This document shows, piece by piece, positions 13,100 through 62,715 of a DNA stretch of 64,000 bases. The DNA is taken from assembly GCA_965649765.1 (NCBI GenBank), contig OZ287755.1, forward strand, positions 28,892,001 to 28,956,000, given 5' to 3'. Numbering within the stretch: the first letter of the stretch is position 1; the number at the start of each line of letters is the position of its first letter. The notes under the pieces were generated by a model, which was given only the letters and a program-made list of their open reading frames with translations, had not been told where the DNA came from and ran no database searches. The DNA comes from Bispira polyomma (Eukaryota). Made by a program: the position numbers and the translations under genes.

Positions 13100-16000
13100 G
13101 TCAATGCTCCTTGTATACAAAGATAGTAGGAAAAGCCAATGAAGTTCCACTATTCGTAAACAATCAGATAGTTATTGCTCTGATTGACACTGGATCGATG
13201 GTAAGTACAATGTCAGCAAGCTTTGGTAAGTCATTAAATCTAACTGTCCAGCCATTGGATCGGTTACTGACAGTAGAAGGTGCTGGTGGTCATCAGTTGG
13301 TTTACCTTGGATATGTGGAGGTGCAGGTAAGCTGTCCTGATATTGGTGCAACTGATTTACCAGTAATCATGCTTGTACTGCCAGATACCAAGTATCATGA
13401 AAGGGTACCAGTACTAAAAGGTGTTATTGTGACTCCAAGTGTCAACCACATTCAGCCTGGTAAATCAAATTCGAAGCTACCTGTGGAAATAGTCAACCAT
13501 CTCGGACAGTCTGTGACCATTCCTGCCAAAGCTCGCATATGTGATTTATACAGCACAGATGAAATCATCACTTTGGATTCGAAAAAATCTGGACACCAGC
13601 TTACTTGCCCAACCATTGATGACATAGAACACGCTGAATTGTCAAGTTTTTTGGCCAGTATGGATCACACAAAGGACAGTTTGTCTGATAAGCAGGTGGA
13701 GGAAGTACAACAACTTTTGTCTAAGTGGCACTTTGTTTTTTCACTACATGATATGGACCTTGGAGTCACTGATAAGGCGGTACATCACATCAAATTGAGG
13801 GATGATACTCCTTTCAAGGAACGGCCAAGACCAATACCGCCATTGATGTTTGAAGACGTTCGGGACCATCTCAAGGAAATGGAGTCATTGGGGGTTATTC
13901 GCAAGTCACAGAGCCCATATGCTTCCAATGTGGTCATTGTGAGGAAGAAATCTGGTGCTCTGAGATTTTGTTTGGATCTTCGTCTGCTGAACAGTAAAAC
14001 TATACCTGATTGTTACAGCCTTCCTAGAATTGACACTACATTAGATATTCTGACAGGTTCTAAGTGGTTCAGTGTGTTAGGCTTAAAATCAGGTTATTGG
14101 CAAGTGCCATTAGCAGAAGAGGACAAGTGCAAGACCGCATTTACTGTTGGACCATTAGGCTTTTGGGAATGCGAACAGATGCCGTTCGGCTTGACCAATG
14201 CCCCAGCAACTTTTCAACAACTGATGGAGAATTGCATGCGAGATTTACATCTAAATTACTGCCTTTTGCACTTAGATGATATCATTGTGTTTAGTAAAAC
14301 CTACGAAGAACATCTGGTATGTCTGCAGGCAATTTTTGAAAAGCTGAAAGAAGCATGTTTAAAACTTAGCTCGTCAAAATGTCATTTCTTCAGAAAGATT
14401 ATAAAATATCTGGGTCATATAATATCTGAAGAAGGTATTTCAGTTGATCCTGAAAAGATATCTTGTGTACAGAATTGGCCTGTGCCTAAGTCTGTTACTG
14501 AAGTTCAGCGTTTTGTTGGTTTTACCAGCTTCTATCGTCGTTTTGTTAAGGATTTTGCTAGGATAGCTCGCCCTTTGCATCAAGTTACTCAGGGTGGTAT
14601 TCATTATCAGACTAAAACAAGGTCCAAAGTGCGATATCCGCCATTGGATTGGAATCCAGAGCAGCAAAATGCTTTTGACCAGTTGAAACAGGCTTGTTGT
14701 AATACTCCTATACTTGGTTTTACAGACTATGCCAGACCATTCCTTTTGCATACTGATGCCAGTGGTGAAGGGATAGGGGCAGTATTGCATCAAGAGCAGG
14801 ATGGAATTCAAAGAGTCATAGCCTATGCAAGTCGGGGTTTATCCAAGTCTGAGAAAAATTACCCCATTCATAAGTTGGAATTCTTAGCACTTAAGTGGGC
14901 TATTACAGAGAAATTACATGACTATTTGTATGGGAATGAATTCACCGTAATGACAGACAACAATCCCCTGACATATATACTTAGTTCTGCTAAGTTAGAT
15001 GCAACAGGACATCAATGGGTTGCTCAATTAGCAAACTATCGCTTCACTTTGAAATATTGTACTGGAGTTTCGAACAGAGTTGCTGATGCTCTGTCACAAA
15101 TTCAATGGCCAGAAGTTAGCACACAAGTAGTACAGCAAGTATTGAAGGTGCATGTGAACAACATTGATCCAATTGAAAGCTTTTGCTATGACCAACAAGC
15201 AGTACCTAGGGAGTTGGAAGAGAATGTAGCTAATTCATTGGAACAGGTCATTGATTGGGTTTCTGAACAGGATCAGGATCCTGTTATCAAGGTAATCAAG
15301 AAGAAACTTGTTAATCAGTTAAAAGGAACTGAGCTTTCACCACAAGCAAAGCGTTTATGGAAAGAAAGAAAAAGACTTTCTATCATTAGTGGCAAACTAA
15401 TGCGAAGTAGGGTTTGCTCAGGTTCAAAGCAGTGGCAATTGGTCTTGCCCAGTAAGTATTGGAAAGTAGCTCTAGAATTAGTGCACAACAGGATGGGTCA
15501 CCTTGGAAGGGATTTTTTTGTGCATTATGGGTTTCCAAAGCGATTGCATAGTGACCAAGGGCGTAATTTCGAAAGCAAGACAATTGAGGAACTTTGTAAA
15601 TTAGCAGGGATACAAAAGAGTAGAACAACACCATATCACCCAATGGGAAATGGAATTGCAGAAAGGTTCAACTCTACTCTGTTGAATATGTTGGGTACTC
15701 TTGATCCAGGGAAAAAGATTGACTAGAAAAGTCATATTGGATCACTAGTACATGCATACAATTGCACCAAACATGATACTACTGGATTTTCCCCGTATTT
15801 CCTCATGTTTGGTCGCCATCCTCGTATTGCTGTGGATCTTATACTTAGTCAAAAGCAGGAAAATGTCCATAAATCAGTGGATCATTATGTTGTCAACCTC
15901 CGTACTCGGCTGACGAAGGCTTATGAGTTGGCAGAGTCAAGTATCAGGAATTCTCAGGCTGATCAAAAGAAGATGTATGACAGGCGTATCCGAGGAGCTG

Positions 16001-16773
16001 TGTTGGAAGTTGGCGACAGAGTATTAACTTGTGTTGTTGGTTTGAAAGGAACAAACAAGATTGCAGATAAATGGAGCAAGGAAGTTTATATTGTAACTTC
16101 ACAACCTAATCTTGAAATTCCGATTTATGGCGTTAAACCAGAAGTAGGTAAAGGGAAAGCAAAAGTGTTGCATAGGAATCTTTTACTTCCTGTTCCTTGT
16201 TTGCGTCTGTTTAAGCCGGTTCCTAAAAAGAGGAAAATATTGAAGGAAGAATCCAGTGATATTTCTGAAGAAGTGAGCAAATGTGTGGATTTGGATAGTC
16301 AGTCTGATTTGAGTTTTACACTGGTTAAGCATCCGATGGGTACTCCACCAAGAAGTATACCAGTGCCAACACCTAGACGAAGTAGAACTCAAACTGTGAC
16401 ACCAAATCCCACACAAACAATACATGAGACTGATCTTGACGATACGGCTACTGACAGTTTTACTCTAGATCCTCAGAGAGATTCCTCAAATACTTCATCT
16501 TCCCATTTTGATAGTTCATCTAGTTTGCAATCAGAACAGGCAATTTCTTCTGGGACAGAAAATGTCTCTGAAGGTAATCATAGTGGGGATGATAGTTCTG
16601 AGAAGGAGGAAAGTAATGTGGAAGTGCAAGCACCCAGACGATCAAGTAGGATCAAGTCCAAGTCCCATTTGAGGCCTGATTATGTGTATGATTTTTCACA
16701 TACCTCAAGCAGCAGGGAAAGTGAAGTGTTGCAGAAAGTAAAATTCCTGAAAGAAATGGTCAAGCTCTTTTAA
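13054..16773 (+). pseudogene. pol: Gypsy Pol (protease, RT, RNase H, integrase), disabled
   Basis: ALIDTGS protease; RT with LGLKSGYWQ (D>G) and HLDD (Y>H); RNase H TDAS...KLEFLAL. Integrase is internally deleted (HNRMGHLGR|DFFVHYGFPKRLHSDQGRNFES) and has a TAG at 15724-15726; the frame continues to 16773. Confidence 0.92.
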
Positions 16774-18514: not shown

Positions 18515-20035
18515 TCATACAGTACAGTAAAAGTAGGTCAACGTGTAAGCCAAGGTTCTATCCAGGTAGTCGTTCAATATATATTTTCTAAGATCTTTTT
18601 GTTCTATTACATAGCAGAACAAAAATAGTTGTGTTTAAAAAAAGACACAGGCGCGCAGTGTGGAACACACTAATGCTGATATGGCTAGTATATACATGGG
18701 CAAATCTGACAAACCTCATTGCTTTCAACCAATCCATAAATTCCTTACATATTATTTCTAAGCTCTTTTTCTCACAATGCATACCATCAGTAAAAATCAA
18801 AACATTGTCAAGGACAGTAAACTCTGTCTAGTCTTTTTTCTTCTAGATGCAGGTAGATATGATGAAGCCTGACTGGTACACACATCTTGTGAAAGAACCT
18901 AGGTGAATGAACGGTCAATGCGTGTGGTCTTATAAGACAGACTTGCTAAAGTTACAACTAACTAAAAATAACTTTTCTTGTAAAACATGTGTCTCTAGTC
19001 ACAGAAAAAAAATGAGGGTTGCCTGTTTGAAAACAGTATTGAAGAGGACAATAATACCAGTGACATTATTAGTGCTGAAGTTATTTTTGTTGGCAATAGA
19101 ACATAAAGTGGACAGTTCCCAACGCGCTCTTATGTGTACACAAGCTGCTAGCCAGTTAGGGGTGGGAACAAGAACAGTGGCCAGCATGGTGGAAACAGCC
19201 CACCTGCTGGTATCTTTTTTGTCTACGCCAAAAACGTCGCAACATGTCCAGAGAGAAGTGAACCCGAGGCTGGCGGAGCTGGCGAAAATCAATGAAACAG
19301 GTAACCAAAAAATCCCAATGGGGGACACAGAAACAGTGCGGGTTAAAAAAAACTTTCCTTGGCTTCAAAACCATATTCTAGAGGGTCAGAATAAAAGTAG
19401 GTCATCTTATTATTTTTTTTTATGTAGGTTATCTTATGACAATTTGTCAACAGTTTTCTTATGTGGTGTTGTTAGATAATTTAAAGTGGAAGACAATAAA
19501 AAGATACTGTTTTGGAGTTAATTTTGTACATGTTACTATATCTATGTGCAATGTTACAGTAAATGAAAAAAATATTTAAAATTATAAGAAACAACTAGGA
19601 TTCTAAATGAACCCAAACCCAAATTAGAAAGGGGAGGGGATGATGTTAGAAAAGGTGTGTGGAATTACAGAGGCAGCTTGAGATGTGGACTGTAAGTACG
19701 TCCATACGGCTGAACTGCGCCAAAGGCCATGTTCTGGAGGAAAATGTTGCTGTTAAAAGCTAGGGAGGATCTGCGGAAGGTGTGAAACCCGTGTGTTGAG
19801 TGGTCAATACCGATATGTTGTATAATCATCCTCAAAGCTGCCCTGATGTGTGAGTCTACAATGGGGTAATGTTGGGGTTTTGCTGAAGTGAATAATGGGG
19901 TAGAAGATGCCATCCCCCTGTTATTAATCAGCAGAGTAAGTTCTGTGACTGGGCAGTGGAAGTTTTATTGTGGGTAACTGGACTATATAAGACTTAGATC
20001 TATCCTGCTTGTTATTTGCCCATTTTATTATAATA

Positions 20036-20248
20036 CACGGGCGGTCACAATACCGGTCGGATCACAATACCGTTCGACGCACATTTTAAAGCTTAAAACG
20101 TAGATTTATTCAAAGTAAAATAAAGTATTCTGTACTTTAATTTATAGACATTAAGTAGCATGTGTTTTCAGTATTAATTTCCGTCAGTAAAGTATTTTAA
20201 AATGCAATGGACGGTATTGTGACCCGACCGGTATTGTGACCGCCCGTG
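20036..20248. mobile_element. MITE with ~38-bp TIRs and TA TSD (Tc1/mariner-type), inserted in YR
   Basis: TA|CACGGGCGGTCACAATACCGGTCGG...CCGACCGGTATTGTGACCGCCCGTG|TA. Removing it restores colinearity with the YR at ~31900-31960. Confidence 0.9.
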
Positions 20249-20726
20249 TATGTACCCCGGGAGGGCCAAATATTACATCTTGAATTAGCAGATTTCTTGT
20301 GGAATCAAATTTCCTTCTAAAATGTGGGGCTGTAGAAAGCCACTACGGAGCCCTGATTGGGTACCTTCAGAATTTCAGAATTATTTACTCTAATTTGTCC
20401 TGTGTCATAACTGAATCAAACTGCTCGCTAGAATCACTAATTGTGACCATTTCCCTGCTACTCTTAACACTCTTGCACTGTCTGATTGTTCGTTCGCACA
20501 TGCATCCTTGCTGGAAGGTTGTGCATTGTCTGACCTCTTAGCTATGCTTGCTTTAACACACTTAAAATCTGAATAGCTATTTTCTTTCTATTCAGTGAAA
20601 GGTAACAGTGATTACAAATGAGTCTGTATTGCTTGTGATCGCTGTCATGGCTACAAGAGCCATTATTAAAGAATATACACATATTTTTCAATTTCTGCAT
20701 GGATTGTGGGTCTGTGAAACATGGCC

Positions 20727-20963
20727 AATAATTAAAGCCAGTTGTGATGTGCTCATCCGGTTCAGTGACCACTGTGTGGAATTCAACCAGTCTAAGCGTC
20801 CCTCTTCAATTTCCTGCACATTAAGTGGTCAGCCATCCTTGACATAATAATTAAAGCCAGTTGTGATGTGCTCATCCGGTTCAGTGACCACTGTGTGGAA
20901 TTCAACCAGTCTAAGCGTCCCTCTTCAATTTCCTGCACATTAAGTGGTCAGCCATCCTTGACA
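20727..20963. repeat. Exact 118-bp tandem duplication within gag remnant
   Basis: 20727-20844 equals 20846-20963. Confidence 0.9.
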
Positions 20964-22799
20964 GCAGACCAGGGTAGCGACGCTGAGTCTCTAAGTGTGT
21001 AGATCATTTGATACATCATATTATGCATTGTAGTGAGGTCCGAAACCTGCGCACTGTTAAACAGTTGTCCAGCAGCCCACTGAGTTAGTGATAGGTCGTC
21101 ATAGTTGGGCCGTTTGTCGGCAGTACCCACCAACCACCCTTTGTTTTCTCAACGTGCTTGTGAGTCAGAGGTGGACACGTCAGTGGTGGTGAATAGGCCA
21201 GATTTGTGTCAAAGTGAAATTTTACTCTTGTGAAAGGTTGTGCTTGAGGTGTATGTCATATGCTGCTAGTCTCTGGTTGATGGCGGCATTGACATCCAGC
21301 AGCATTCTTAGCGCATCTAGACAAGGGTTGATCCCATCACACTGGAAGTCCTGGTGCGAGCCCTGAGGTAATGTCTAACTGCTGGTTAAGTAAGCAGGAG
21401 CTGGTTGTAGGTTAACCTGCGTATGTGATGGTAATGTCGCTGCAATGGTCGGCCGTAGGTCGAGCATAGTATTGCTTGTGGCTTGGTGGTTGTGGCTGTG
21501 GGTTAACCTGGGCGTGTAGTTGTAATGTGGCTGCAAAAGTAGGTAAAAAGTCGAGCATAGCATTATTAGTGGCCTGGTGGTTGGGAGATGTCACAGGACT
21601 AGAGTTAGTTACATGACCCAGTTCAATCTTATATAGCCATCTGTTTAGATCAACGTTGGCCGTTTTAAGCCTTAAGTACTGTTTTTACCTCAGCTAGATT
21701 GTTCTCACAACTCGATGTACCTTGTCGCTCAACTTCTGTCAGCGGGATGTGTGGATTTATTACCACAGGATCAACTAGTTTCTCCACTGCACCACGTCTT
21801 GTAGTTGCCTTCTTCTTGACTTGGGGAGCTGTGCCAGGTGTCTTTTTAATTCTTCCCATTGTTTATATTGTAAAACTGCGTGTTAAAAACTTATTGTAAA
21901 AACTGAAAAGCCTAAATCTAACACAGTTTAATGAAGAAAATAAACAGTGTTGACCATGCCAATGCGTGGACCAATATGGCACCCAAAAGTGGGGACACAC
22001 AAGATAATTAGAGGGGGTCTAATTAGTGATGGGCTAATCAGGTAAAGGAGGGATGGACAGAAGATTCGACAATAATAGTTTTACAAAAGGGAAATTTCTG
22101 TGGGATGGTGAACTAAATCAGCAGACTCCTGAAGTTATCATGCTAGACAAGGGTTTCTGGTTTCTGAAAATGATACTAAAAATAGGAATTGTATGCTAGA
22201 ATATATGCGAGATCTTATGGAAGATGCTCACGACTAATACTAATACCCAAAGTTGGTCAAGATTTTGCTGATAGTAAAAATGGCAGTATTGCGGTATTAA
22301 ATTGTCAAAAAAATTAAATGTTAGAGTTGTATATAATTCCATGTCTGGACATGACGGTGGTAAGAAGTAGAGAGCAGGTTGGGCTAGGTATAACAATAAA
22401 TCCTATGCTGAGGTGGTTAGGGCTAAAAAGAGGGTGCATTTGGGCCTAAGTACGGCAAGTAACAACAGAGAATGTGAAATGCCCACAGGTCAGAGCTCCA
22501 ATTTTTGCTTACATGTTCAAAAAATAAAATGTACAAACAGTGTATATAATAACCATGTTTTCAGAAATGTGTACTCAGGAAAGCAATGTGCCAATATTGG
22601 GCTGATTGAAAAGGTTTCCCAGTGGAGAAAGGAGAAGGTGTCAAAATATTTACAGGTAACACTAGAAACGTAAAACAAAACACTGCACAAGAAGTCCCCG
22701 TCGAATGAATGGAAAATTAATTAGCTGGCACTAACAAAGGTGGCCATTTGGAGGGCCGAGGTCGACACAAGGGCTATTGCTGTCCCTATGTTATAGACT

Positions 22800-26147: not shown

Positions 26148-26976
26148 TTAAAGAGTAGGAGAGTACACAATCATTAGTGTATTAGTGGACTACCCATTAT
26201 GACCACATTAACTATATATATATATATATATATATATTAGATCTTAACTTAGTAACTAATACAAGTTTTAACCACACTATTTTACTATCTTTCTTCCTAA
26301 ACCATCTGTGCAGCCGAGGAACTAAAATCTTTATATTTGTGTGAATGCCTCCATTCCCCTAATCATTTTGCTACATATTGACGACAATGACATTTTTTTT
26401 AGAATTTTTTGTTAAATTGTAATGTAGTGTTGAAAGCTATATAGAATTATAACCTTTATCTATGTTTATGTTATTTCTATTTTTTGTGGAGACGTGCCAT
26501 ATCACGTAGTCGGCAGTCTGTAAAGCCATTAAGGATAGATAATTAGATCTAAGTGAAAAACTGACTGTCTTTTTATTCTCTATGGAAATTGCCAAGAATA
26601 CCACAAACAACGCTGATCTACTTGATATACAAACTATATCAATGACAGAGTTAAAAAGAAAAGCAGTTCACCTATTTTTTTTGTACTAATTGATCTGATA
26701 ACCTCACAAGTCCCTCAAAGTTCTGAGAGATATAGGTTAGAGGTCCTCTAAAGGTCATAAGTGATAGATGTATGTATGAATATGGTATAACTATTAACTA
26801 GTGAAGACTCTGATGCTAGTTTGAGATATATATGTATTTACACTTTCTAATAGTCTTTATGTACAACTTTATATAAAAAGAATAAACAAAGTTAATTAGT
26901 TGTGAATCTTTGCACGCAGATCCAATAGAATGTTTATATTGAAACTATGGCCGACCAAAAAATAATTTAAAAATGT

Positions 26977-27197
26977 GTCGAGCACGACAACTTTAGGGCC
27001 CTGCTGAATCAGTTCCCCATCCTAGTAAATACCCCTTTTAAAAAACTATTCTTGTTCCCAAGTACATACTTCCCACACTTTTCCCAATTAGCCAATCACT
27101 AATTAGACCACCTTTCATTAGAAATTATGTCCCCACTTTTGGGTACCATATTGGACCAAGCATTCAAAGAGTCAACAACAAAAAACGAAAGTTTATT
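26977..27197 (+). repeat. Split direct repeat A1
   Basis: About 5 differences from A2 (32549-32769). Confidence 0.93.
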
Positions 27198-27267
27198 TAC
27201 TGAATATATTGAAGGTTTTATGTGTCTTACAACAAGTGATTTGATCTGTTTTTAATATATATACACT

Positions 27268-28539
27268 ATGGGGAAGACGAAAGCACCAGGTAGTGATCCA
27301 TTATCTAAGAAAAAAATGACTTCAAAACGTGGGACAAACAAAGGCGCAGACCCAGTTGTGAGGAAACTTAGGATCTCAAGGGACACAGACACAGCGACGG
27401 ATGAGTCAGCGAAGGGTGAGAATGGTATTTCAGATGTTATGTCTATACTTAAACGACTTGAATCAGTGAATTCAGAAATCAATAGGAGGCTTGACAAAGT
27501 TGAACTGAAAGGGGCATGTAACTCGACCCCATTAACCTCCCCTACACAGCAGGGCATTAACAATACCATGTTAGAATTACGGCCACCTGTTACAGACAGA
27601 TTTCCCTTGATTCAACCGGATAACCAATACACTGCCCAGACGCATGCAGACGTCCACGTAACTCAGGCTATGCCACCCATGGCCCCACTGGCGGCACAAC
27701 ATCACGGTTATCATCCGAGTAACCACCACACTGCCCAGATACAGGCAGACGTTCACGCCACTCAGGCTTTGCCACTTAGGGCCCCCCTGGCGGCACAACA
27801 TCACGACTATCAGCGAGATGGCATCATCCTTCGACCGGATATCCTAAAAACCTTACCTGAAGTCAACGCGGCAGTGAACCAACGGCTGGCGGCTTGTCAT
27901 GTGCAGCTCAGGATGGACTTGTCGCAAGGTAAGACCTCCCTTAGGCAAAAATCTGGCCGCTTCAATACCACAGATGTTATTACATCTGACCCTAAATACC
28001 GATGGTCCAACGAGGGTTGGATCGGAGGCACTGCTTGTAAACGACCCAGTTTCGACGACCTCACACTGTCACAGTGGGCTGCAGGGCAATTGTTTAATAT
28101 AGTGCAGGTCTCAGACGTCACTACCATGAGGAATATGATGTATCAAATGATGTATACGCTCAGAGACTCAGCTTCTCTTCCCTGGCCCGCTGTTAGGTAA
28201 GGTTGGGCATTGAATATGCAAGAAGTCGAGGAAGGTCGGTTGGATTGGTCGAACTCCACCCAGTGGGCTCTAAATCGCATGAACACCTCACAGTTGGCTA
28301 TGATTAATAGCCATGTCGCACAAGCCCCACAGGCAGCACAGAAGTCCAAAAATGTATGTAAATTTTACAACAATGGTACTTGCAACCACGAATCCGACCA
28401 CGGACAGTATCGTCATATATGTAATCACTGTTTTCGCTCAGCCAATAGGGAGAACACGCACCCAGAATTTAAATGTGTCAAGGCGAATGTTGCAAAAAGA
28501 TCTTCAGACAAGCAGACACCAAGCTACGGAGTTGGTTGA
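27268..28539 (+). pseudogene. gag: Gag-like ORF1 of YR element (one premature TAA at 28198-28200)
   Basis: The same frame continues across the stop; KSGRF, LTLSQWAAG, C-terminal CKFYNNGTC...H...CNHC...H...C zinc-finger cluster; internal 33-aa duplication. Confidence 0.85.
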
Positions 28540-31369
28540 CGACCAAGTGAACGAACTAACAGAGAGAGTAGAGTATTTAAGGGTATTAGAGATAAAGTCA
28601 CAGTCACTAGTTATAATAATGTTGTGTATAATGATAATTGTAAAGTGGAAAGTCAATGGTCAAATAATTTGAAAACATCACATAGGGCCCCTCAGGGGTG
28701 CCATAGTGTGAAATACTATAATGTAAAAGCTAAAATTATACATTCGATTGGTAATGTCAAAACTATTGATTCTGGTGTCTCTGAACAAGGCTGTGACAGG
28801 TCTGGTAGTGGGGAATCAGACTCAAATTTCTATGAGATGGGGAATCAAAATATTAGACAGAATGGCCACCATGAGAATGGGCTTACTAAAGATCATATTT
28901 TGGAAAGACCTCAAAAATCTAAGATTACCCAACTGGGTCACCATAATAATGGTAACAATAATTTTTCAATTGATATAGATGGGCCTAATTATAGGCACAG
29001 GTATTGTTATGTTCAGAGACCAGATGTCAATCAAGGTGACAAACAGTATGTGTTCGTGTATGGAGGCACAATTAAGACTAAATGCATAGTTTCGATAATG
29101 AACTATGAATTCTATGATTATCATGATATTAACACCAGGGCTAAAGCATTGGTATACTTAGAATTTCCAAATTGTCATGACATGTCAGGTTTTTGTGTTA
29201 GGGAGTGGGACAATGCAGACAGTAATTTTATTTATACAGGTTTAGACGAGTTACCAGGTTTCCAACTGAGGGTGACTAAAAGACAAGGAATTATTATGAA
29301 TGGTCATAAATGGAACAGGGTCTATAAGTTTAATGACAAAGAAATAATAGGGGCAGCAAATGCTCATGACAACTACAACAAAGACCTGGCATGTCATAAA
29401 ACACTTGGCTGTGCTTATTCTCAATTTATGTGTGATATCATAGATAAGATAATTGAAAATGATGATATACATGTTAATAGTAATGAAGTTCAGAAACCCA
29501 TAAATAAATGGGATAAAATGCACAAGGTGAGTTGTACTTCCGCTCCGCTCATTAACGACCTGGATGGGCTGGTGGGCCCGGACATGGAAGTTAATTCTTC
29601 TTCAAAAACTTTACCTTCTAAGGACATTGATAACCCTGATAAGAACACAGGCTTCATTAAGCTTACTAGCACTCCATTTCAATTTGTAGGGCCAGACAGA
29701 GATTCGGTTCTGCTAGAAAATATGAAGGACATTACACTCCCTGCAAATATCATAAGGGACACAGGACTTCCAAATTACAGGCAGGCACGAATACCTGTCA
29801 AATCCCAGTTAAACATCGCGGCATGGGAAAACTTAACGCAGGATCACCCAGACAAAATCGTAATCCAATACCTTAAATTCGGTTTTCCATTGTCCCTAGA
29901 GAACGTATACCAATTACAGGTTAAACAGGTGACTAATCATCACTCTGCTCTTGAATACTCAAATGTGATTGTTCAATATCTAGACAAAGAGAAGTCTAAA
30001 GGGGCCATGTTAGGCCCAGTGGACGTACTTCCACATTACCACTGTTCCACATTACCACTGTTCCCCCCTATTAACCAGACCGAAAGACCGTGACAAACGT
30101 AGAGTTATACTAAATCTCTCTCACCCATTGGGTGATTCAGTAAATGATCACGTTAGCAGAGATACCTATGATAACACAAAATTTCTCCTTAAGTTTCCTA
30201 ACATAGATACTGTCACTTCTAACATTTTAAAATTTTCTGACCCAGTAATGTTCAAGGTCGATGTAGCCAGAGCTTTTCGTAATTTGAGAGTAGACCCTGT
30301 CGATGCTCTTCAACTTGGTATATGTCACGACAATAAGTACTACGTTGACGCTGCAGTTGCATTTGGGTGACCACACGGTAGTGCCGTATTTCAGCGCTGC
30401 TCGGACATTATCGCAGACCACATGAGAAAGCAAGGATTTGACCTTTCATGCTACATTGACAATTATATTTGTGTCTGTCAAAAATTGGATGCGCAACGAG
30501 GTTTTGACATCCTATGTACATTACTTAAAAACCTTGGTCTCCCAATGAACCCAGAAAAAATTGCACCCCCCTCTGCACAGGTTACATTCTTAGGTATCGA
30601 CATTAACATTGATGAGGGCACTATTAGTATAACCCCCGAAAAAATTAAAGAAATTTATGACGCATGTGTGGAAGCACGCACAAAATCATGGTTATCACGT
30701 TCAAAATTTCAGTCCATACTTGGGAAATTGCTATATATTCAAAAATGTGTGAAACCGGCCAGATGCTTCATCAATAGGTTACTTTCGGTATTTAGGGCTT
30801 CTCCTAACGCTAAGAGATTTAAACTTACAGATAACATCAAGAAAGATTTAGATTGGTTTGTCGCCTTCCTATTTAAATATAATGGAGTCGCTTATATTGT
30901 CCCCTCGATCATCAGTGACGCTACTGAGTTACACCTGGATGCCTGCTTAACAGGACTAGGTGGCATATGGGGTTCACAGATTTATTATACACCTGTATAC
31001 AACATTTACCAACAAAAATTACATGTAACACAACTAGAAATGATTAACATAGTTATTGCATTAAGGATCTGGGGTGAGGACTGGGCTCACCAGAAAGTTA
31101 CATTTCACTGTGATAATATGGCCGTAGTCTTGGTCGTCCAGACCGGCAAAACTAGGGACCCCTTTTTGGCAGCATGCATCCGTAATATTTGGCTGATATC
31201 TTCTTTACACGACATAACTCATATTAGAGGTAAGGCGAATATATGGGCAGACGCACTTTCGCGCATATATTCAGATAATCCCCCTAAACAGGAAATGTTA
31301 GTAAAACTGAGTCATTGTACACGCAAGGAGGTTCCCATAACACACTTTAACCTAGATTATAATATTTAA
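28540..31369 (+). pseudogene. pol: RT/RNase H ORF of YR element with long N-terminal extension, disabled
   Basis: YLKFGFPL, FKVDVARAFRNL, YIDN (D>N), HLDACLTGLGG, CDNMAVV, NIWADALSR. A 16-bp duplication frameshift at ~30031-30063 and a TGA at 30368. Confidence 0.9.
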
Positions 31370-31375: not shown

Positions 31376-32348
31376 GTGCTACAACAGCCACAGATTCACT
31401 GACCACTGCTGCGATCAACAGGATCAACACAGCACTGAGGCCAGCAACCACATCAGCCTACACCAGCCAATTTAGGACTTTCCTCTCTTTCCTACAGTAT
31501 GCACACATTCAGGACATAATTGTACATTCAGTCTTGGCCTTTCTAGAATATCTCAAAATAATTTGTCTCCAAAAGTAGTTAACAACTACCTCGCTGCATT
31601 GGAATTCATGTCGGCTAAATATCAGATTAACCCAGCAGTGTTTCAACACAATGCCATCTCTTTGTTTACACGTAGTCTGGTTCACAACTCCCCTTTTAGA
31701 CCAGCTTCAAAAGGGGTATTTGACATCAAACAGCTGTTAAAAATATCACAGGCTTGCGAAATCCTACAAGACCCCCATTTATTTAGGGCCATTTTTCTGG
31801 TGGCATTTTATGGATTTTTGCGTATGTCCAACATCGCCCCTCACTCAAGAAGGAAATTTGACCCCACTAGAAATTTACTTATTCATGACGTAGTATTTGG
31901 CCCTCCTGGGGTGCACCTCATAATAAAGTGGGCAAAGAACATGCAGGACAGATCCAACTCACATGTGGTTGAGTTGCCCTCAATTAAGGTTCCCTTACTT
32001 TGCCCAGTAACAGCACTTACTCAGCTGATCAGTAACAGGGGACTGGCACCTTCCACCCCCTTGTTTACCTCAGCATCACCCCCTTATTATCCTGTGGTGG
32101 ACTCACACATTAGGGCAGCTTTAAAAATCATTCTTCAACATATTGGCATTGACCATTCTACCCATGGTTTCCACACTTTTCGCAGGTCAGGCGCAACATT
32201 AGCATTCAATAACAATATTTCTTTACAAAATATTATGGCACATGGGCTTTGGCGCAGCTCAGCAGTTTGGACTTATCTTCAATCTACATCACAAGCTGCC
32301 TCTGTGATTCCTCACACTTTTGCAAACATTGTCCCCTCCTCTTTCTAA
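31376..32348 (+). pseudogene. Tyrosine recombinase of YR element (no ATG; one frameshift near 31560)
   Basis: GFLRMSN (R), KWAKN (K), HTFRRSGA (HxxR), HGLW, WTYL (Y). The N-terminal part ALRPATTSAYTSQFRTFL starts right after a TTGTAG acceptor. Confidence 0.9.
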
Positions 32349-32357: not shown

Positions 32358-32548
32358 GGGTTCATTTAAAATTTCAGCTACCTCTTCAATTTTAAATATA
32401 TTTTATACTAATTACTGTATATTGTACATAGCCATACTAACTTGTACAGGAAAATAAACTCCAAAACAGTATCTTTTCATTGTCTTATATCACTAACCAT
32501 AGACACTTGGATATCAACAACTTACTTTGACTACACATAGGGAACTGT
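32358..32548 (+). repeat. Split direct repeat B1
   Basis: 191 bp, 2 differences from B2; directly abuts A2. Confidence 0.93.
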
Positions 32549-32769
32549 GTCGAGCACGACAACTTTAGGGGCCTGCTGAATCAGTTCCCCATCCTAGTAA
32601 ATATCCCTTTTAAAAAACTATTCTTGTTCCCAAGTACATACTTCCCACACTTTTCCCAATTAGCCAATCACTAATTAGACCACCTTTCATTAGAAATTAT
32701 GTCCCCACTTTTGGGTACCATATTGGACCAAGCTTTCAAAGGGTCAACAACAAAAAACGAAATTTTATT
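32549..32769 (+). repeat. Split direct repeat A2
   Basis: Copy of A1; junction GGAACTGT|GTCGAGCAC. Confidence 0.93.
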
Positions 32770-32835
32770 CCCACCACCAACCCCTAAGATTCCACCACTT
32801 AAGTTACATTTTACTAGGTAATCCAGGATGAACAC

Positions 32836-33200
32836 TGAACTCATGGCCGGGTGAAGATCGGGTAGTCTTTTCGCTCTCCTCTGAGCTCAACTATAGTGGC
32901 CAGGGTAGAATAAGGGCGATCTGACCATTCTTTCTTTGCTAGGTGATTAGGTACCACAGGCCTCGGGCTCCACGGACTCCCTGCATGTCCAGTAAGATTA
33001 AGTACAAATTAGGTAAATAAAAATTTCAGAGAATGGCAGACGGGTGGTTGAACTCTCGGCTGTGTGGAGACATTTTCAGTCCTTTTTCCCTCCTCTGAGC
33101 CCAACTGTAGTGGCCAGGGTTGAATAAGGGGGCAGGAACTGAATTCTTCTCTGCTAGGTGAATAGGTACCTTAGGCCTCGGGTTGCACTGCACGTCTGCA
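32836..33200 (+). ncRNA. Two tandem copies of a candidate structured RNA in the A2-B2 spacer
   Basis: Units at ~32836-32971 and ~33049-33186 share a 41-nt core with 3 differences; flanking stems differ in sequence but keep pairing. Function unknown. Confidence 0.4.
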
Positions 33201-33614: not shown

Positions 33615-33805
33615 GGGTTCATTTAAAATTTCAGCTACCTCTTCAATTTTAAATATATTTTATACTAATTACTGTATATTGTACATAGCCATACTAACTT
33701 GTACAGGAAAATAAACTCTAAAACAGTATCTTTTCATTGTCTTATATCACTAACCATAGACACTTGGATATCAACAACTTACTTTGACCACACATAGGGA
33801 ACTGT
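33615..33805 (+). repeat. Split direct repeat B2
   Basis: Copy of B1 ending GGAACTGT. Confidence 0.93.
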
Positions 33806-35273
33806 CACTGAAACTCACATCAATAGGGCTACTTCAAACAACAAGAACACCAATAAATATAATTGTTTACAAAGCGGCAGTGGAGGAGTAAAATCTCTCC
33901 TCCCGCGATGTCTATTTTCTTGCAATTTTTCTCTGTTCTAACTAACAGTTCACACAAAAGACTGATGTTGTTTTTTTCATTTGCTTCTTTTTGCACTAAT
34001 TGATCTGATAACACTGGACCTTAGCTAATTACTCGTGAATCTTTGCACACAATTTCAATAGAGTTTTTTTTAAACCGTGGATGTTATTGGATTTGCAAGG
34101 ATCTATCAATTTTTACAAGGCTATAGAAACGGGAGATGTAAACTTATTGGCTATAAAAACCTAATATTTGGTTCAAAGTTCTCAACTTACTTCAAACATT
34201 TAGCAAGATATATCTATATTCAGTAAATATTTGTTTAATTGTTCAAATAGTTTTTTTTCTGGTATTTTGAAAGTTCACATGTACTTATTTATGACCCTTA
34301 TAATATATATTTATTGTGGTCATTTAAATATCTGGCTTTTTAAATTAAAACTAAGGTTGTATTGTATTAATTCTAGGGTTAGAGACAAATTCTTGCAACC
34401 ACATATTCTTTATAAGGGCAAAATGTGTGAGGTACAGGGTTTGTCTGTGAAATCACACAAAGTAGATCAAATAGGTATTAAAAAATATTAACAAAATATC
34501 TATTTAGCCAAAGAAATTAGGTAATAAAACTGCAGCAGTTGGATTCAATAGAATTGAACAAGAAAATTGACTTAAGTTGTGATAGAATTAAGACAGGATT
34601 AAATCGCGTAAAATAAAAAAGGTGAGTAAAGCTTAAATAAAATACTTTAAAGATTAAAATTTACAAGTTCGAAAGCTTCTTTTGTATACATAAAATTTTC
34701 TTTGTACACCGTTAATATTAAAAAGCTCCCTTGCTGAAGCATTTTATAAAGGCCACAAGTAGATGCAATTTATTTTAAAATGTAGAAAAGTATATATAAA
34801 CTGTATTTAGTAGAAATAGAGCAGTTTATGTAGGAATTAGTTATTTTGATTTAATTTTGGCATGAAGGTGTGCATCAAATAAAACGAAATATTTGTTTTA
34901 TACCGTAGAAGTGATAATTTTAGTTGAAACAAAATTCCAATAATTTATGTTTTTCAATGAAATTCACTTGAAATTACTATCCAAGGTCAATAGCTAATAG
35001 GGAACCGTCGCTGAATTTAAAGTTATGTTAAACACCTCAATCTTGAATCTCAATGCACAGCTATGAGGCAATGAATGATTTGGTTTAATAGCAATATATG
35101 TAAGTTTGGGCCTGTCAGGAAATTATCATTTCTATTTCAGCCACTTTATATACATTTACAAAAACAAGTGACCATTTTCACTAAAAAAATAGTACCAACT
35201 GCAGCTAATGGCACTGTAACATAAGCTCATTATTACCGGACATTTACCTAAAAATACAGTTATATTATATAAA

Positions 35274-35903
35274 ATAATATAGGAGATACTAGAAGGTGGC
35301 ATGCTGTTATAAATCATAATATAAGAGATACTACAAGGTGACATGCTGTTATAAATCATAATATAAGAGATACTACAAGGTAGCATGCTGTTATAAATCA
35401 TGATATAGGAGATACTACAAGGTGACATGCTGTTATAAATCATAATATAGGAGATACTACAAGGTGACATGCTGTTATAAATCATAATATAAGAGATACT
35501 ACAAGGTGGCATGCTGTTATAAATCATAATAGAGGAGATACTATAAAGTGGCATGCTGTTATAAATCATAATATAGGAGATACTAGAAGGTGGCATGCTG
35601 TTATAAATCATAATATAGGAGATACTACAAGGTGGCATGCTGTTATAAATCATAATATAGGAGATACTACAAGGTGGCATGCTGTTATAAATAATAATAT
35701 AGGAGATACTACAAGGTGACAGGCTGTTATAAATCATAATATAGGAGATACTACAAGGTGGCATGCTGTTATAAATAATAATATAGGAGATACTACAAGG
35801 TGACAGGCTGTTATAAATCATAATATAGGAGATACTACAAGGTGGCATGCTGTTATAAATCATAATATGGGAGATACTACAAGGTGGCATGCTGTTATAA
35901 ATC
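35274..35903. repeat. 42-bp minisatellite, ~15 copies
   Basis: Unit ATAATATAGGAGATACTACAAGGTGGCATGCTGTTATAAATC. Confidence 0.95.
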
Positions 35904-36300
35904 GTGATACAGACATGATACAGACAAAATGTAATCAGAAGAACTGGTAAATATACCAATTGAATATAATTTTAACAACCCCATATTTATGCTAGGACTC
36001 TTCAAAATGGATCAATAGAATTAATAATTATTAACCAAGATATACATAAACCAACCGGTCATCATCAGTAGGCAATGGTGTGTTTTCACCTTTACCCAAA
36101 TAACCACTATGGTTTACCAGGAGTCCAACCAAGGACATTTGAATCACGAAACCAACTCCAAAACCTACAAACGGACCAGGGACATTGTGATCACTAGACC
36201 AAATATATAACCCCAAGGCCAATCTATTCACAGAGTTTTAAATATATAACAATTAAAAGTATGTCCAAAAGGAACAGTCGAAGCAAAACATTGCACTCCC

Positions 36301-47967: not shown

Positions 47968-48165
47968 ATTGCTTTGTGAATGCTCCCACTCCGGTATGGA
48001 GCCCCTCCGGACACACCAGTGCTTGCTGGAGGGACGAGACGTATCTGAAAGCAAAGTTAACGTGTTACCCGGGCACCGTGTGGAGTGATACCAAGACCAG
48101 AACCAAAGTGGAGAAGTGTGTCTGTGGCAAGAGTTGGCCATCACAGGCGCTGGGCTTTTGTATAG
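47968..48165 (+). CDS. Host gene exon: CCP/Sushi-like domain
   Basis: ttcatAG acceptor, phase 1-1, 198 nt; DCFVNAPTP...LTCYPGTVWSD...KCVCGKSWPSQALGFCI; AG|GTGAGG donor. Confidence 0.85.
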
Positions 48166-48925
48166 GTGAGGTGTACTCATCTTTTGTATAGGTGAGGTGT
48201 AACCATTTCTTGTATAGGTGAAGTTGTAGTCATCTCTTGTATACGTGAGGTGTACTCATCTCTTGTATAGGTGAGGTGTACTCATCCTTTGTTTAGGTGG
48301 GTTGTACTCATCTCTTGTATAGGTGAGGTGTAACCATTTCTTGTATAGGTGAGGTGTACTCATCCCTTGTATAGGTGAGGTGTACTCATCTCTTGTATAG
48401 GTGAGATGTACTCATCTTTAGTATAGGTGAGCTGTAATCATCTCTTCTACTACCTAGAAATTATATTCACTCCAGAAAGCATACACATCTGCTCTTGGCA
48501 TCTTGCCACCCTGGACTACCCAGTGTTATAACAATATCTTTCAAGATGGTGTACTCATCTTTTGTATAGGTGAGGTGTAACCATTTCTTGTATAGGTGAA
48601 GTTGTAGTCATCTCTTGTATACGTGAGGTGTACTCATCTCTTGTATAGGTGAGGTGTACTCATCCTTTGTTTAGGTGGGTTGTACTCATCTCTTGTATAG
48701 GTGAGGTGTAACCATTTCTTGTATAGGTGAGGTGTACTCATCCCTTGTATAGGTGAGGTGTACTCATCTCTTGTATAGGTGAGATGTACTCATCTTTAGT
48801 ATAGGTGAGCTGTAATCATCTCTTCTACTACCTAGAAATTATATTCACTCCAGAAAGCATACACATCTGCTCTTGGCATCTTGCCACCCTGGACTACCCA
48901 GTGTTATAACAATATCTTTCAAGAT
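48157..48925. repeat. 26-bp minisatellite inside a 378-bp tandem duplication
   Basis: Unit TGTATAGGTGAGGTGTACTCATCTCT; block 48170-48547 is repeated at 48548-48925. Confidence 0.93.
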
Positions 48926-48976: not shown

Positions 48977-50624
48977 CTAGTGGCGCTTTATAAGCACCCT
49001 TTTGTTAGGTATGGGCACATTGAGTCATATACAGCTTAAGGAATGCTGCATTGTAAGTAAACAAGAGCTGTCAGTTTTTAAAAATGACACAGGGGCACAC
49101 TGTGAAATTGACTGACAAGGGTTGATATGGTCACGCTTACTACCCCTCAGTTTCGACGAATTGATTGCTTCCAACCCATTTAAAAAGGCCTTATATATTA
49201 TTATCGGGGATGGTTACACTACGATTATGTGAGGACAAAATTCAATTTTGAGGACAGCACTTTCTACCATCTCCTTATATAATTTTTGCTTCAGTTTTCG
49301 TATTTAATACTGTTTGGTACTAAGGGCAAGGACCATCTTATAATATATCTATTTTTTTTAAATTTGTTTGTTTAATACGTTTGGTCATTTGGTCTCGTAA
49401 TTACCGCATTTTTCCTTATATCTTTCCTCGCTTTAATGGACATGTCAACACAGATAGCTATACAAGAAAAATCATAGGTTTGCAAATATATATATGATAT
49501 ATTTATATACACTATATTGAAAGGATATCTGTAATTTCTATGTAATTTCTTCTAACCTGCTAGAACGCACCCCTTCTAACTTTGGTTTTGAGCCATACAG
49601 CGCCACACTACAGTGTGTTTTTTTGGCGAATAGAAATCACAATATTAATATTATATGAAAGTTTGACATAATAGTCACCCCATATACACATATAGTTGCT
49701 TTAATCCATTAAAATTTCTTTAGTTTGCAAGACTTCGAAACCGCCATATTTGTTGTTATTAAATACTAGTACACAGATGATCAAAGATGGCGGCCTACCT
49801 AATTAAATCATGCGAGACAGTAATTGGCTGAAAATCTGGGCCGTTTTCAATGCGTGTGCACATTAGGGTCAAAGTGAGACCTCTTAAACAATATTAATAG
49901 ATTTTTTAATCCCCCAATCATCCTATTTATACTTCAAAGCGATGCCGAGTATTATACAGCAAGTATATTACGAGATTCATCAACACGTGTTTATCTATCT
50001 GTTTACTTACTACACAACTTCGGTTTCTGCGAATATAAACAGATTTGAAGCCATTTGCAAAGTATAACAATATATATATATTACTTGTTTTATAACAATT
50101 TATTTTTTTAATATGATTACCTAAATAACCCTGCCTCGTTGTACACCATTTCTACGCTTCATTTATTCTTATCCTTTAAATATCATACATTAATATTAAT
50201 ATATGTTCCCGAGTCAAAGATCAAAGCCATTTTCGGGAAGTTTCGTTAATTGCTTCCTTCTAATATAGACGTTGGCATAATACACTATTTCCTGGCATCA
50301 ATAGTAGGTTTGCGATGACGCACAAAAGTAGCAAACTTGTTCAGTGACGAAAGGTCAGGGACGTTGCACCGAGTTACTGTAGTAAAGCGCGTGCCTCGTC
50401 GCAGTTCGATGAGAGGCACCAACTGGGTAGCACATATAAATTTTATTCTGCGAAAGAACATTACCTTTGTGATAAGAACTTGGATTGTATGGTTTAACAT
50501 CAAGATTGCTATGTAATTTGAATAATTTTTCCCCAGTTGGTGCCACAGGAAATTGAATGTCATTTTGGGAAAGAACTAGCTGTGTCATTACTTAAACTTT
50601 AAACCAGTGTTTCACAGTGTTAAT

Positions 50625-51925
50625 ATGAGGCCTTACAAGAAAGCAGCCAAAAGCTCAGTCAGTGCCGGCAGAATTGTAGCTAGTAGATCTGGCAGGGTTG
50701 TTATTCCCCCTGATCAGGCAGCTTTCGCTACAGTGGATAAATCAAAGAAAGCCAAAGCCAAGACTACTGACAGTCTATTTTCTCCTGCTGGAGGAGCCCA
50801 AGGCCGTGGTCAGCCGGATTTCAGCAAGCAGTCGGCAGGCAAACTCACGTTTCCTGCTAGAAGACCTACTACTCGCAGTGCTGGCAAAGCTACTAGTGCA
50901 GTAGATGTTAGCCTTCAAGGTGCCGTTTCGGATGTCAGTTGTGCAGGGGTACAGCAGCAGATAGCGACAGACGACATGACGCAGCAGCTAGGCCAGCTCA
51001 CACAGGCAGTCCTTACGTTACAAGAAGCTAATACTACCCTATTAGCTCGGGTGGACACTATGCAACACGAGAAAACAAGTTCAGATGTGGGTGTTTCTCC
51101 AGAAGCAAGTGTTTCTGCCAACATAGTATCTAGTAACCCTCGGAAGGGCAGCCCCTCACTGGGAAGGGTGCTCCCGTCAGTTGAACTTTTACAAACTGTA
51201 GGTGCCAGTACAGGACTTAAGTCGAATCTCGCAGTTCAACGAGAAGTTCAACGTCGCTCGAAATGGAGGATCAAGAAGATCAGGTGCTTGATTTTGGTAT
51301 GTGTAACAGTGCTGTTAATAACAGGAAAGTCAAGTCAGGTCAATTCCGGGTAGGGGGGGAAACCCCTTGTAAGAAGTTCATTTACTGGCCCCACGACCTT
51401 TGCTTTATTGGCAGTGATTGTAAGCGAGTCACGTATGACGAACTTACTCTGCTTCAGTGGTCCCTCGGGTTTAATCGTTGCATACTCAAAGAACCAGATG
51501 TCGCAATACAGCAGAATATGTTAAATTACGGAACGGAATTGCTACAGAATGCCATGGATCTCAGCTGGGCTGTGTCAAAAGGCGCTCATAGAGTAGTCTT
51601 ATGTAGTATGAAAGACGGCCTACTCACTTGGGGTGAGCTAGATAAAGTAAATGCTATTCGTAGGCAATTTGCGCAATGGCAAGTAGTGGCTAATGTCAAA
51701 TCCAGTGCAGGTACGTTTAAACACTCTACTGCCAACGCCAAAGAAGTATGTTCAAAATTCCAAACTGGTTCTTGTGACTCGGGTACAGATCACAAAATAG
51801 GTAACATTTGGAACCGACATATCTACGCATATTGTATGACCAGGACAGGTCGTCCCTACCTGCATAGAGAAATAGATTGTCAGCGCAAGAAGGCAAAAAA
51901 CGGAGGAGAAAAAGCTCGACAATAA
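50625..51925 (+). pseudogene. gag: Gag-like ORF1 (frameshift near 51255)
   Basis: KSGQFR, YDELTLLQWSLG, CSKFQTGSC...H...YC...H...C; ends GCA AAA AAC. Confidence 0.8.
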
Positions 51926-54900
51926 ATAATGGTCACTGTGAAGTATTGCAAGGGGTGAGTGGTCATAATAATGAACTATCTCATAACACACAAATGGTTA
52001 AAACAAGTAAGACATGTCAATTAAATGTGGCTGATCACTCAGCAGTAGTTGTTAAGAGTAATTTCAATTGCAGTCTGCCTGTAGGGCGGGACAGTGATTA
52101 TATCAGTGGTTATAGTTTTAACATGACATCTTTGCCTTTTGGGCTTAATTACAGTAGTAAATGTTCGTGCCAATGTATTTGTAAGCACAAGTATTCTTAG
52201 TTCTATGTGTATATTGTTTGTTGGATAGCTTAACCCGTGAGGGGTTGCATGACAGTCCACTTGAAGGTGGGTAGGCATTTTTGTTTTATTCTCAAGTGAA
52301 TAATTATCCCCGGCACAGAGTTGTATTACATAGTTATGTTTCAGTTTTCAACACTGATAGTTTGTTAGTGAAAACGAAGGCCCTTTGCTTTCACCATGTA
52401 AGTAGACAAGATTGCGTAGCATATAATATTACCAATGGCCCTTCTGCGCAGTGGCTTGCGCAGAGGTGGTTTTTCTTGGGGGATGCCTCGAGGCAGCAGC
52501 TGGAGTTCTTGGCGGTAAAATTCTAGACACACATGCGCAACTTACTTCGGAGGCTGTACTCACAAGTTGACAGGCAGCCGAACTACGTTTGGGCTGTAAC
52601 TCGGATCACGGAAACTTGCCACGCGCCACTTGTAACTTTCCGAAGTTAGTACACAAAACTCACGCGGTTTTATCTTGCGCGTGTCGGGTTATTATGTCTG
52701 GGCTTGTTAACGCTGGCAGTTTGCTTCAAGGTTTTTCTTCCTTATTTGGCAATATTGCAATTCACAGTGAATGCACAGAGTTTCCAGCTAAAAATGTTCC
52801 TAGTTTTCACAGTAACTTATCCCAACGGTGCATTTATTTAATACTTTGGTATTATTTAATAGTTTGTTATAAAAACAAATGTCTGGTTTATGTACGAGTT
52901 GCACATATTTTTAGTCACCTTTTTGACAGGTACTTCCAGACTGTTATTGTTCGCAGTATTAAAGCTCACAGGCTTGGCAGTATAGGCCACAAGGAAATGT
53001 CCATTCACTTAACTGGGTTAGTCAACAACAATTCATTGGCAGAGTGAGCATGCTGCTCTGTATTCTTGGTCAGTTGGTTAAATTCTTGTTCATGTCGGGG
53101 ACAGGTTTATACTTTAGCCATGTTATATATCATGTTAATGGCATCTGTAAAGTGCTTGTTGTGGTGTACTGTAATTGGTATTATTGTGTCTTGTTTGTCG
53201 CACTTCAGAACTTGTGTTACAGTTTCATGGTCAGTATACTTAGTAGATGTAGAGCTGCACAGCACTCTACTGCTAGTTGTCACATAGGTGGTGCATTACA
53301 GCAGACTGCTAGTTTATCTAGTCATTATAATGGTACTTATGTCACTTGTCAGTATCCAGGACAGTTTAATTATGGTTACTTACCTCTTAGTGCGCAGCTT
53401 ATGCCAATTGACATGGCCATTAGTCCTGCAAGGTGTGCCTCGGCAGTGCAACTTCACAGTTTAGTCAACCAGGAAGCAGGTTGTTTTCATTTTTTGTATC
53501 CTCCGATACCAGTTCCCTCTACTCTTAATATGCCAGTGTGGCGGAGTTTATTGAAGGATTATTATGACACTCCATTAGTAGAACTATTAGAATTTGGGTT
53601 CCCATATTTTAACTGAAGCGCTGCATAATCACCCTTCAGCGGGTAACTACCCTGATCATATTACACACTATATTACAACTGAATGTAAACATGATGCAAT
53701 TGAAGGCTCTTATAGGGATTCCCCCTTTCCAGGTTTACACACTTCACCCATGTTAACCAGGCACAAACCTAATTCACAAAATAGGAGAGTTATCATAGAC
53801 TTGTCGTGGCCTAGGGATGACTCAGTCAATGCTAGTGTTTCCAAAGAAGTATTTCTACATACAGATTTTGTACTTACTTATCCCACTGTTGATCATATGG
53901 TGGATTGTATCAAGCAATGTGGTTCTGACTGTTATTTGTTCAAGGTGGACCTTCAGCGAGCCTTTCGTAATTTGCGAATGGATCCTCATGGCAGAATGCT
54001 TATTACATTGATAAGGCGGTACCCTTTGGGTTAAGACATGGTAGTCATTATTGCCAGCGAATGACAGACAGTATTAGGTATATAATGGCTCAGCAAGGCT
54101 ATGTCGTATACAACTATATCGATGACATAATTGGTATTTATAGCTCTCTTGAGGCTGCGACCTCGGCTTTCACTTATTTACTCATTTTGCTCAAAGACCT
54201 AGGTCTTCCCATTAGTCAATCTAAGTTAGAATCTCCTAGTAAAGCCATTACGTGTTTGGGGTTACAAATTGATGTAGCAGCAGGTACTCTCAGTCTCCCT
54301 CAGGCAAAACTTACAGAAATTATTGCTCTCTGTGTTGAATGGAGTCATAAAACCTTTGGCACCAAGAACAAAGTGCAAAGTATCATTGGTAAACTTTTAT
54401 ATGTTAGTAAATGTGTGAGACCAGTTAAAGTTTTTGTTAACCATATGTTGCAAGTCCTGTGTACTTGCCCTGATACTGGTCGGTTTAAATTGCCAAAATC
54501 TTTTATTGCTGATGTTCAGTGGTTCGTGCAATTTCTTGGTCAGTTCAATGGAGTAGTGCTGTATGCCACACCTGTGAGTAATAGTGAAATAGTATATGTA
54601 GATGCCAGCTTATCGGGCTTGGGGGCAATGTATAAACAGTTTGGGTATCATGTGGAATTGGATCAGATACCTGATCACCCTTCTATTATTGTGCATCTGG
54701 AGATGCTTAATGTATATACCGCTCTTATCACCTGGTTGCATGCTTTTACTAACTCCCATGTAATTCTTTATTGTGACAACAATGCAGTGGTTAATATGTT
54801 GAATTTCAATAAAGGGAAAGACCCCTATCTTCTTAAGGCGGCTCGGCATATATGGTTGCTAACAGCTGCCCATAATATCACCTTTCAGGTTCGGCATGTC

Positions 54901-55030
54901 CCTGGCATCGACAATATAGGGGCGGATCTGTTGTCTGGATTTTCTGATCCATTTAAAAAGAACAAGTTCCATTCTTTGTTTCCTCAAACACAGTTCACTT
55001 AAGTACCTTGTCATGCAACGGCCCTCACTT
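51895..55030 (+). pseudogene. pol: RT/RNase H with long N-terminal extension, frameshifted
   Basis: LLEFGFP, FKVDLQRAFRNL, YIDD, YVDASLSGLGA, CDNNAVV, NIGADLLS. Confidence 0.85.
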
Positions 55031-55059
55031 GGGATATTTAAAGTGGTATTCATGTATAT

Positions 55060-58537: not shown

Positions 58538-58543
58538 CTACAA

Positions 58544-59641: not shown

Positions 59642-59647
59642 ACATAA

Positions 59648-62400: not shown

Positions 62401-62715
62401 CCCTGAGCCTGAGCCTGTGGATTCTGTGCCTCCCGTTAACTTTATAATCTTCTTAGTCTTATTTCAATATCTATGATAGCCATTACTTGAACTTGCATGT
62501 CGCTAACTACAGCCATAAATGCTGTTGCAATATTTTTTATCACTTGTGGTATCATCTTTCCCACTTGACTTTTGAATTAAAACATGCTTTATTGATGCTA
62601 TGCATCTTCTAAAGCGATACAGCAGAATCAGTAATGCAATAGTCCATGGGCATAGCAAGCTCGTGAACAAACATGTGGAGGTGTACATAGTTATTTTTGC
62701 TGTTGTTTTTTCCAG

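Follow-up and report, generated by a model that had tools for sequence, protein, structure and literature searches.

The window that we analysed, a stretch of 64,000 nucleotides from the Bispira polyomma genome (assembly GCA_965649765.1, contig OZ287755.1, positions 28,892,001 to 28,956,000), contains on its plus strand a tyrosine-recombinase retrotransposon of the Ngaro type, which is broken and has split direct repeats. The element opens with repeat A1 (26971..27197), which is 97% identical to A2, and continues with ORF1 (27256..28539 in the ORF list), a Gag-like frame with a C-terminal Cys/His finger and a stop at 28198-28200. We take ORF1 to be Gag from its position and from the general layout of Ngaro elements; a Pfam search of ORF1 returned no match, and its Cys/His motif is visible in relatives of the element. 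An in-frame tandem duplication of 99 nt (27612-27809), whose copies are 82% identical, also lies within this frame. The reverse transcriptase (RT)/RNase H region follows in three broken frames (28540..31369), recognized from its ORFs and from two Pfam matches on 30371-31366 that stay under the cut-off, to RVT_1 (E = 1.3e-5) and to RVT_3 (E = 0.0076). The tyrosine recombinase ORF (31476..32348) matches Phage_integrase, also under the cut-off (E = 1.3e-4), and 143 matches to this recombinase were scored in the B. polyomma assembly (1.04 Gb in 75 contigs), the genome to which our searches refer unless another collection is named. Repeat B1 (32358..32548, with AATAAA at 32453) comes next and is abutted by A2 (32543..32769), as seen from repeat comparison and a reading of the junction, and B2 (33615..33805, with AATAAA at 33710), 99% identical to B1, closes the element.

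The arrangement A1-ORFs-B1A2-spacer-B2 is the Ngaro/PAT layout, as given in PMC7192593 and PMC3266345. The window element shares with Ngaro elements, of the DIRS order, both this pattern of split direct repeats and the succession of RT/RNase H and then tyrosine recombinase, an order that rests in the window on weak, sub-cut-off Pfam matches and that recurs in many relatives. For a methyltransferase, whose absence distinguishes Ngaro from DIRS/PAT elements, Pfam found no match on the ORFs of the window, where the copy is broken. Two further tyrosine-recombinase elements in the window, at 50580-56190 (plus strand) and 57586-59659 (minus strand), belong to lineages without the RNA motif described below, and relatives of the first have only ~250 nt from B1 to B2. 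Decayed tyrosine-recombinase remnants on the minus strand (19633-21868 and 3420-5799) hold fragments of ORF1, RT and recombinase and no motif match. The window also contains the ORFs of a Gypsy-type LTR retroelement (11603-16773, plus strand; PNMA/zinc knuckle, protease, RT, RNase H and integrase) and tandem arrays at 35139-36068, 48118-48899, 60728-61117 and 62664-63283, with periods of 42, 26, 48 and 27 nt, respectively.

In the spacer between A2 and B2, the preliminary description had placed two related structured units, and we find them there on the plus strand, unit 1 at 32834-32982 and unit 2 at 33047-33197. Both are recognized by their fold and by covariance-model matches of 153.7 and 101.8 bits for unit 1 and 151.4 and 112.3 bits for unit 2, scores that are not independent of the units themselves, which belonged to the training alignments. 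The units share a 41-nt stretch with three differences (32876-32916 and 33090-33130, 214 nt from start to start), and the stems named in that description, including the GGT/ACC side hairpin and the outer stem of unit 2, form both in folds of the single units and in a 441-nt context fold. Stability above shuffled sequences, which had been set as a check on the structure, was not observed for the window units, with z = +0.44 and −0.11 for the units alone and −0.90 in context. Nor is the shared stretch the conserved centre for which it had been taken: it is found in only 12 of 57 clusters of units and is deleted in some families (it is missing in loci L079, L092 and L177), and the junction that surrounds it is what is conserved. 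The duplication characterizes the window's family group, most other families having a single unit. A search at the DNA level found 41 matches in the genome, with 40 scored among 60 candidates, and both units were found in all 30 loci retrieved, a few of them truncated.

The consensus fold that RNAalifold computed from a sequence-only alignment of 50 family-level units is a three-way junction, modelled as a basal stem P1, a long variable arm P2 and a short 4-bp hairpin P3 with a 6-nt loop, connected by junction strands of 2, 2 and 3 nt. In unit 1, the consensus fold and pair counts place the P1 5′ strand, a 2-nt junction strand and the P2 5′ strand at 32845..32856; the shared 41-nt stretch forms the variable apical part of the P2 arm (32876..32916), and 32934..32962 holds the P2 3′ strand, a UA junction strand, P3 (32942-32955), a 3-nt junction strand ending in A and the P1 3′ strand. 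Unit 2 is organized in the same way in the consensus fold and the covariance model, with the P1 5′ strand, a GU junction strand and the P2 5′ strand at 33058..33069, the apical part of the long arm at 33090..33130, and the P2 3′ strand, UA, P3 (33157-33170), the last junction strand and the P1 3′ strand at 33149..33177.

Two-sided changes occur in 8 of the 13 pairs among the 50 family-level units, and 96.8% of cells pair as compared with 38.6-54.5% in slid registers, a figure to be read with the fact that the structure was derived from the same alignment. Covariation across copies, on which the proposal of a structured RNA had been staked, is present. The three highest-ranking of 2,628 column pairs come one each from P2, P3 and P1, and among 30 proposed pairs in 57 representatives they reach E values of 0.002, 0.004 and 0.006, in a test that used anchored columns and a null obtained by simulation along the tree. 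When all pairs are tested, the same three have E values of 0.16-0.54 (best 0.155), with none at E < 0.05; two or three two-sided events support each of the three, and no covarying pair has more than two to four. A gapped alignment of 43 rows yields one pair at E < 0.05, and its top three are again helix pairs, in a test that is dominated by phylogeny. Part of the 3′ strand was dictated by the pattern used for searching; when a pattern left the P3 pair free, that pair was a standard one in 94 of the first 100 matches listed, by hand count, with five C-A exceptions that include one whole family. Folding energy across the 57 representatives has a mean z of −1.65, with 22 of the 57 below −2; it does not choose a strand, because the antisense mean of −1.51 is close to the sense value. 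We also considered a hairpin or pseudoknot of the form CUAG-GNRA-CUAG overlapping P3. This candidate is broken in one family (L250-L254), shows no significant covariation and has a mean pairing probability of 0.11 compared with 0.36 for P3; at most it may be a minor state.

The strand is indicated by wobble pairs and by orientation. As the preliminary description had noted from the two units, G-U pairs favour the plus strand: across families, the wobbles that flank the junction read U-G in 50 of 50, G-U in 44 of 50 and G-U in 49 of 50 units, and the stems contain 71 G-U as against 39 A-C combinations. The motif is co-oriented with the recombinase in 79 of 79 pairs, re-fetched loci being counted again. 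Comparison of the window subfamily with its sister gives identities of 80-83% for unit 1 and 84-88% for unit 2, as against 50-56% for the linker between the units, 69-71% for the downstream spacer and 71% for third codon positions of the recombinase. Since the units are more identical than the linker and the third positions, both tandem copies are being kept. The data thus support a covarying, sense-strand structured RNA under selection; of the earlier proposal of a functional RNA this part stands, and the suggestion that it is a ribozyme found no positive support.

The motif is abundant in this genome. A pattern for the 3′ hairpin region has at least 763 matches, with two for the reversed control, and a looser pattern gives 651 matches and none in its control; 79 of 80 loci retrieved from the first 100 matches listed score against a covariance model that was derived from relatives of the window. 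From 180 anchors, 24 of which were dropped because they lacked a 5′ anchor, we obtained 150 unique units that fall into 57 clusters at 85% identity. The arm that bears the shared 41-nt stretch varies from 63 to 103 nt in length, and its tip is lost in some families. In an internal loop on the 3′ side of this arm, a GCUCUG-like word is conserved in most families and not in the window's own; it is possibly a second recognition site. Judged from these alignments and matches, many Ngaro-type families of this genome carry one RNA three-way-junction module.

No Rfam family matched the units of the window region and 21 further loci at E ≤ 1, and ARAGORN predicted no tRNA genes in 15 loci, which leaves a cloverleaf or tRNA-derived SINE reading without support. 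Genome searches for Y RNA and for the vertebrate telomerase family gave no match, in the first case with controls equally blank and in the second uninformatively. Metagenome, viral and prokaryotic collections scanned with patterns contained 0 and 5, 2, and 4 matching stretches, respectively, none with the full fold. The best of these scores 24.5 bits, from a pre-selected 18-mer, and we count none as a homologue; the collections contain few animal genomes. A search of viral contigs with the recombinase found no relative, and other assemblies contain 284 protein relatives of it, the best 120 of which are listed at 47-61% identity. Two contigs of one metagenome assembly (L116, 70-154, and L118, 1370-1434, both minus strand) have in common 26 nt with the P3 hairpin sequence and are without the long arm and P1; in L116 the stretch is flanked by words that resemble an A box and a B box, an arrangement like that of a tRNA-derived SINE. 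In four loci (L056, L057, L059 and L060, ~1493-1680), a unit sits within a multi-copy stretch of more than 2 kb that has no recombinase in its vicinity; by eye, a sequence like a LINE endonuclease start follows ~650 nt downstream of the unit. Full-text searches of the open literature turned up no report of such a motif or spacer RNA fold in Ngaro elements.

Prevalence was assessed in 30 loci picked by recombinase similarity alone. The motif is present in all 13 elements that have both B repeats, and also in three more loci in which no B pair was detected. The 14 loci without it comprise 11 that end exactly at B, A2, spacer and B2 being missing (three of these share one flank), and three that are cut, each at a different point. 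The B-ending copies (within L225-L254), like copies that consist of a solo A-spacer-B (L104/L257 against L080), appear to be what solo-LTR-type recombination of the split repeats leaves behind. The ends of the three copies truncated in or near the spacer lie +359, +466 and +505 from where the recombinase ends; they show no common end and no footprint of a cut or priming site at the motif. Beyond the spacer, the motif occupies three other positions: between the RT and recombinase ORFs (L079, L113, L169 and L190), between the recombinase stop and B1 (L166, L202 and L211), and within an apparent B, as judged from where the shared sequence ends (L216, L224 and L181).

In a quick recombinase tree of 61 rows (two of 63 loci were dropped), 25 carriers of the motif group together in a single clade (SH-aLRT 99), and further carriers form three groups among motif-less lineages. 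These three outlying groups keep the Gag, RT and recombinase of their own lineages, with which they sit in the Gag and RT trees as well, two of them beside motif-less sisters. How similar two units are bears no relation to how similar their recombinases are (Mantel rho 0.07, p 0.27, 23 units), and in some pairs the units are 82-89% identical and the recombinases 32-47% identical, with fourfold sites near saturation. The simplest reading of these trees and identities is that the module was captured repeatedly without the element's proteins; an ancestral duplicated pair under strong constraint, lost in some lineages and kept in others, could account for some of the disagreement between the trees. 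A search with filters off found no credible motif match in any of 12 elements from other lineages that bear the repeats. The spacers of motif-less lineages, among them those of L213 (~3190-3840) and L161 (no Rfam match), hold other GC-rich hairpin-like stretches, which might be functional substitutes. The motif is a previously unmatched RNA three-way junction, real and selected, that many Ngaro families have in common and apparently exchange.

The reading that we favour, tentatively and at a little under an even chance, is drawn by analogy with the transport elements of other retroelements: the module would act in cis as a signal to which a host protein binds and which aids export, stability or use of the element RNA. 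It would be transcribed as part of that RNA, a protein presumably supplied by the host would bind the junction, and the bound protein would promote one or more of these steps. A spacer unit would mark only read-through, full-length RNA, because it lies downstream of the AATAAA of B1, and the tandem pair of the window copy would add binding capacity. We lean towards a host protein because the motif is sense-only, flexible in position, presumably additive in tandem and portable without element proteins. That step is weakened by the trans action of the DIRS-1 RT described in PMC7192593, since a captured signal could then be read by the Gag or RT of another family. Such a signal would not be universally needed, given that 12 elements with the repeats, from other lineages, do without the motif.

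A packaging or other cis-acting role, already raised in the preliminary description, stays plausible, and the signal could instead be read by the element itself: possible but doubtful, in our estimate, is that the junction serves as a packaging signal or as a site of cDNA priming by binding the Gag or RT that the element encodes, with retroviral psi and hepadnaviral epsilon as analogues. The Ngaro model includes a circular intermediate, which would allow an origin anywhere in the element, and the spacer position, by marking full-length RNA only, would suit this role. The primer of DIRS-1 is stated to be unknown in PMC7192593. The helices of the motif (basal stem, long arm and terminal 4-bp hairpin) stand in the same order as P5-P6-P6.1 of the telomerase RNA domain CR4/5, as described in PMC4993307, and CR4/5 binds a reverse transcriptase, being the part of the telomerase RNA to which TERT binds. 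At the position that separates the long arm from the hairpin, CR4/5 has an invariant A (PMC4993307), where the motif has A in 95% and G in 4% by weight, in a column constrained by the search pattern. Yet the hairpin loop has 6 nt rather than 5, no telomerase template or pseudoknot surrounds the motif, which exists in hundreds of transposon copies, and the Rfam telomerase model gave no match on the units; the likeness to CR4/5 is topological only. A more specific version, that the junction is a CR4/5-like, lineage-independent RT cofactor or priming RNA that any Ngaro RT could load, possibly as a short A2-to-B2 transcript, and that families swap, seems to us fairly unlikely. If true, it would supply the missing initiation signal of tyrosine-recombinase retrotransposons. 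Against recognition by the element's own proteins stand the movement of the module without Gag, RT or recombinase, the divergence of the carriers' RTs (~35-41% identical to the window's), the repeat-bearing elements that do without the motif and the absence of a common end at the motif among truncated copies.

Retroelements often carry ribozymes, and the preliminary description had proposed one here. We consider it unlikely that the motif represents a novel self-cleaving ribozyme class that would process the element RNA, even though it shares conserved junction nucleotides, variable peripheral stems and tandem copies with the hammerhead, HDV-like, twister and twister-sister ribozymes of retroelements (features of twister-sister are given in PMC11620745). 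Its unpaired junction and loop nucleotides are highly conserved, its peripheral arms are interchangeable, and it is portable independently of proteins. The remark that the core matches no hammerhead, HDV-like or twister ribozyme was borne out, with core sequence words of hammerhead, twister, hairpin, pistol and HDV ribozymes occurring in 0-7 of 57 sense units. Small ribozymes differ from the motif in their recognizable catalytic cores, Rfam matches and terminal position; all four positions of the motif lie inside what would be the template, where cutting would break it, and the spacer-truncated copies share no site. It is decidedly improbable that the motif is a selfish or neutral passenger spread among Ngaro families by template switching with no benefit to its carrier. 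A passenger would fit the patchy distribution, the tree conflict and the many copies without a recombinase gene nearby, and would not explain compensatory changes in three stems or conservation above that of third codon positions; moreover, one such gene-less copy, viewed in a wider context, proved to be a solo A-spacer-B remnant (L104/L257 against L080) and not a free insertion. Very improbable, too, is action at the level of DNA, as a site for a transcription factor or the recombinase or as a fold in single-stranded cDNA. The cDNA of DIRS-1 is single-stranded according to PMC7192593, and each unit contains several short palindromes, but on the strand of the cDNA the near-invariant G-U wobbles would become A-C mismatches, the orientation is strictly sense and the stems keep their pairing, not their sequence. 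We give least weight, and very little, to a role of the conserved 3′ part in regulating splicing or polyadenylation, either as a splice acceptor or as a donor to which U1 binds. Units of the window family do read as a branch-like CTGAC or CTGAA, a pyrimidine tract and TAG followed by G, and a conserved 5′ splice site lies near the NXF1-binding loop of the constitutive transport element (CTE), according to PMC4338338; against this, the pyrimidine strand shows covariation with the strand it pairs with and tolerates A (in the top-ranking pair), the branch-like word is missing in other families, and as a donor the sequence has C at +2 in 59% and G at +5 in 4% by weight.

A signal read by a host protein remains our preferred, if tentative, account of a compact fold of 150 nt that is supported by covariation, present in hundreds of copies and exchanged between families without proteins, and that is in itself a concrete object for study. 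If a host factor binds it, the motif would be a new portable RNA signal; binding of RT or self-cleavage would matter more. Among known parts of related elements, DIRS-1's internal complementary region (ICR) is a complement of the termini, in contrast to the folded junction found here. Closer in character are the transport elements of retroelements (the CTE of MPMV, the MTE of MusD and the SERV-K/MER11 element). The motif bears no sequence likeness to any one of them, and the NXF1-binding CTE loop hexamer occurs in one of 57 units; the CTE is an NXF1-binding internal loop, whereas the motif is a compact three-way junction in a tyrosine-recombinase retrotransposon. Like the motif, however, these elements are structured non-coding modules that follow the last ORF, and they can be gained by recombination, as reported together with the multi-stem element of MusD (PMC11379458), and duplicated, as is the CTE in its virus (PMC4338338).
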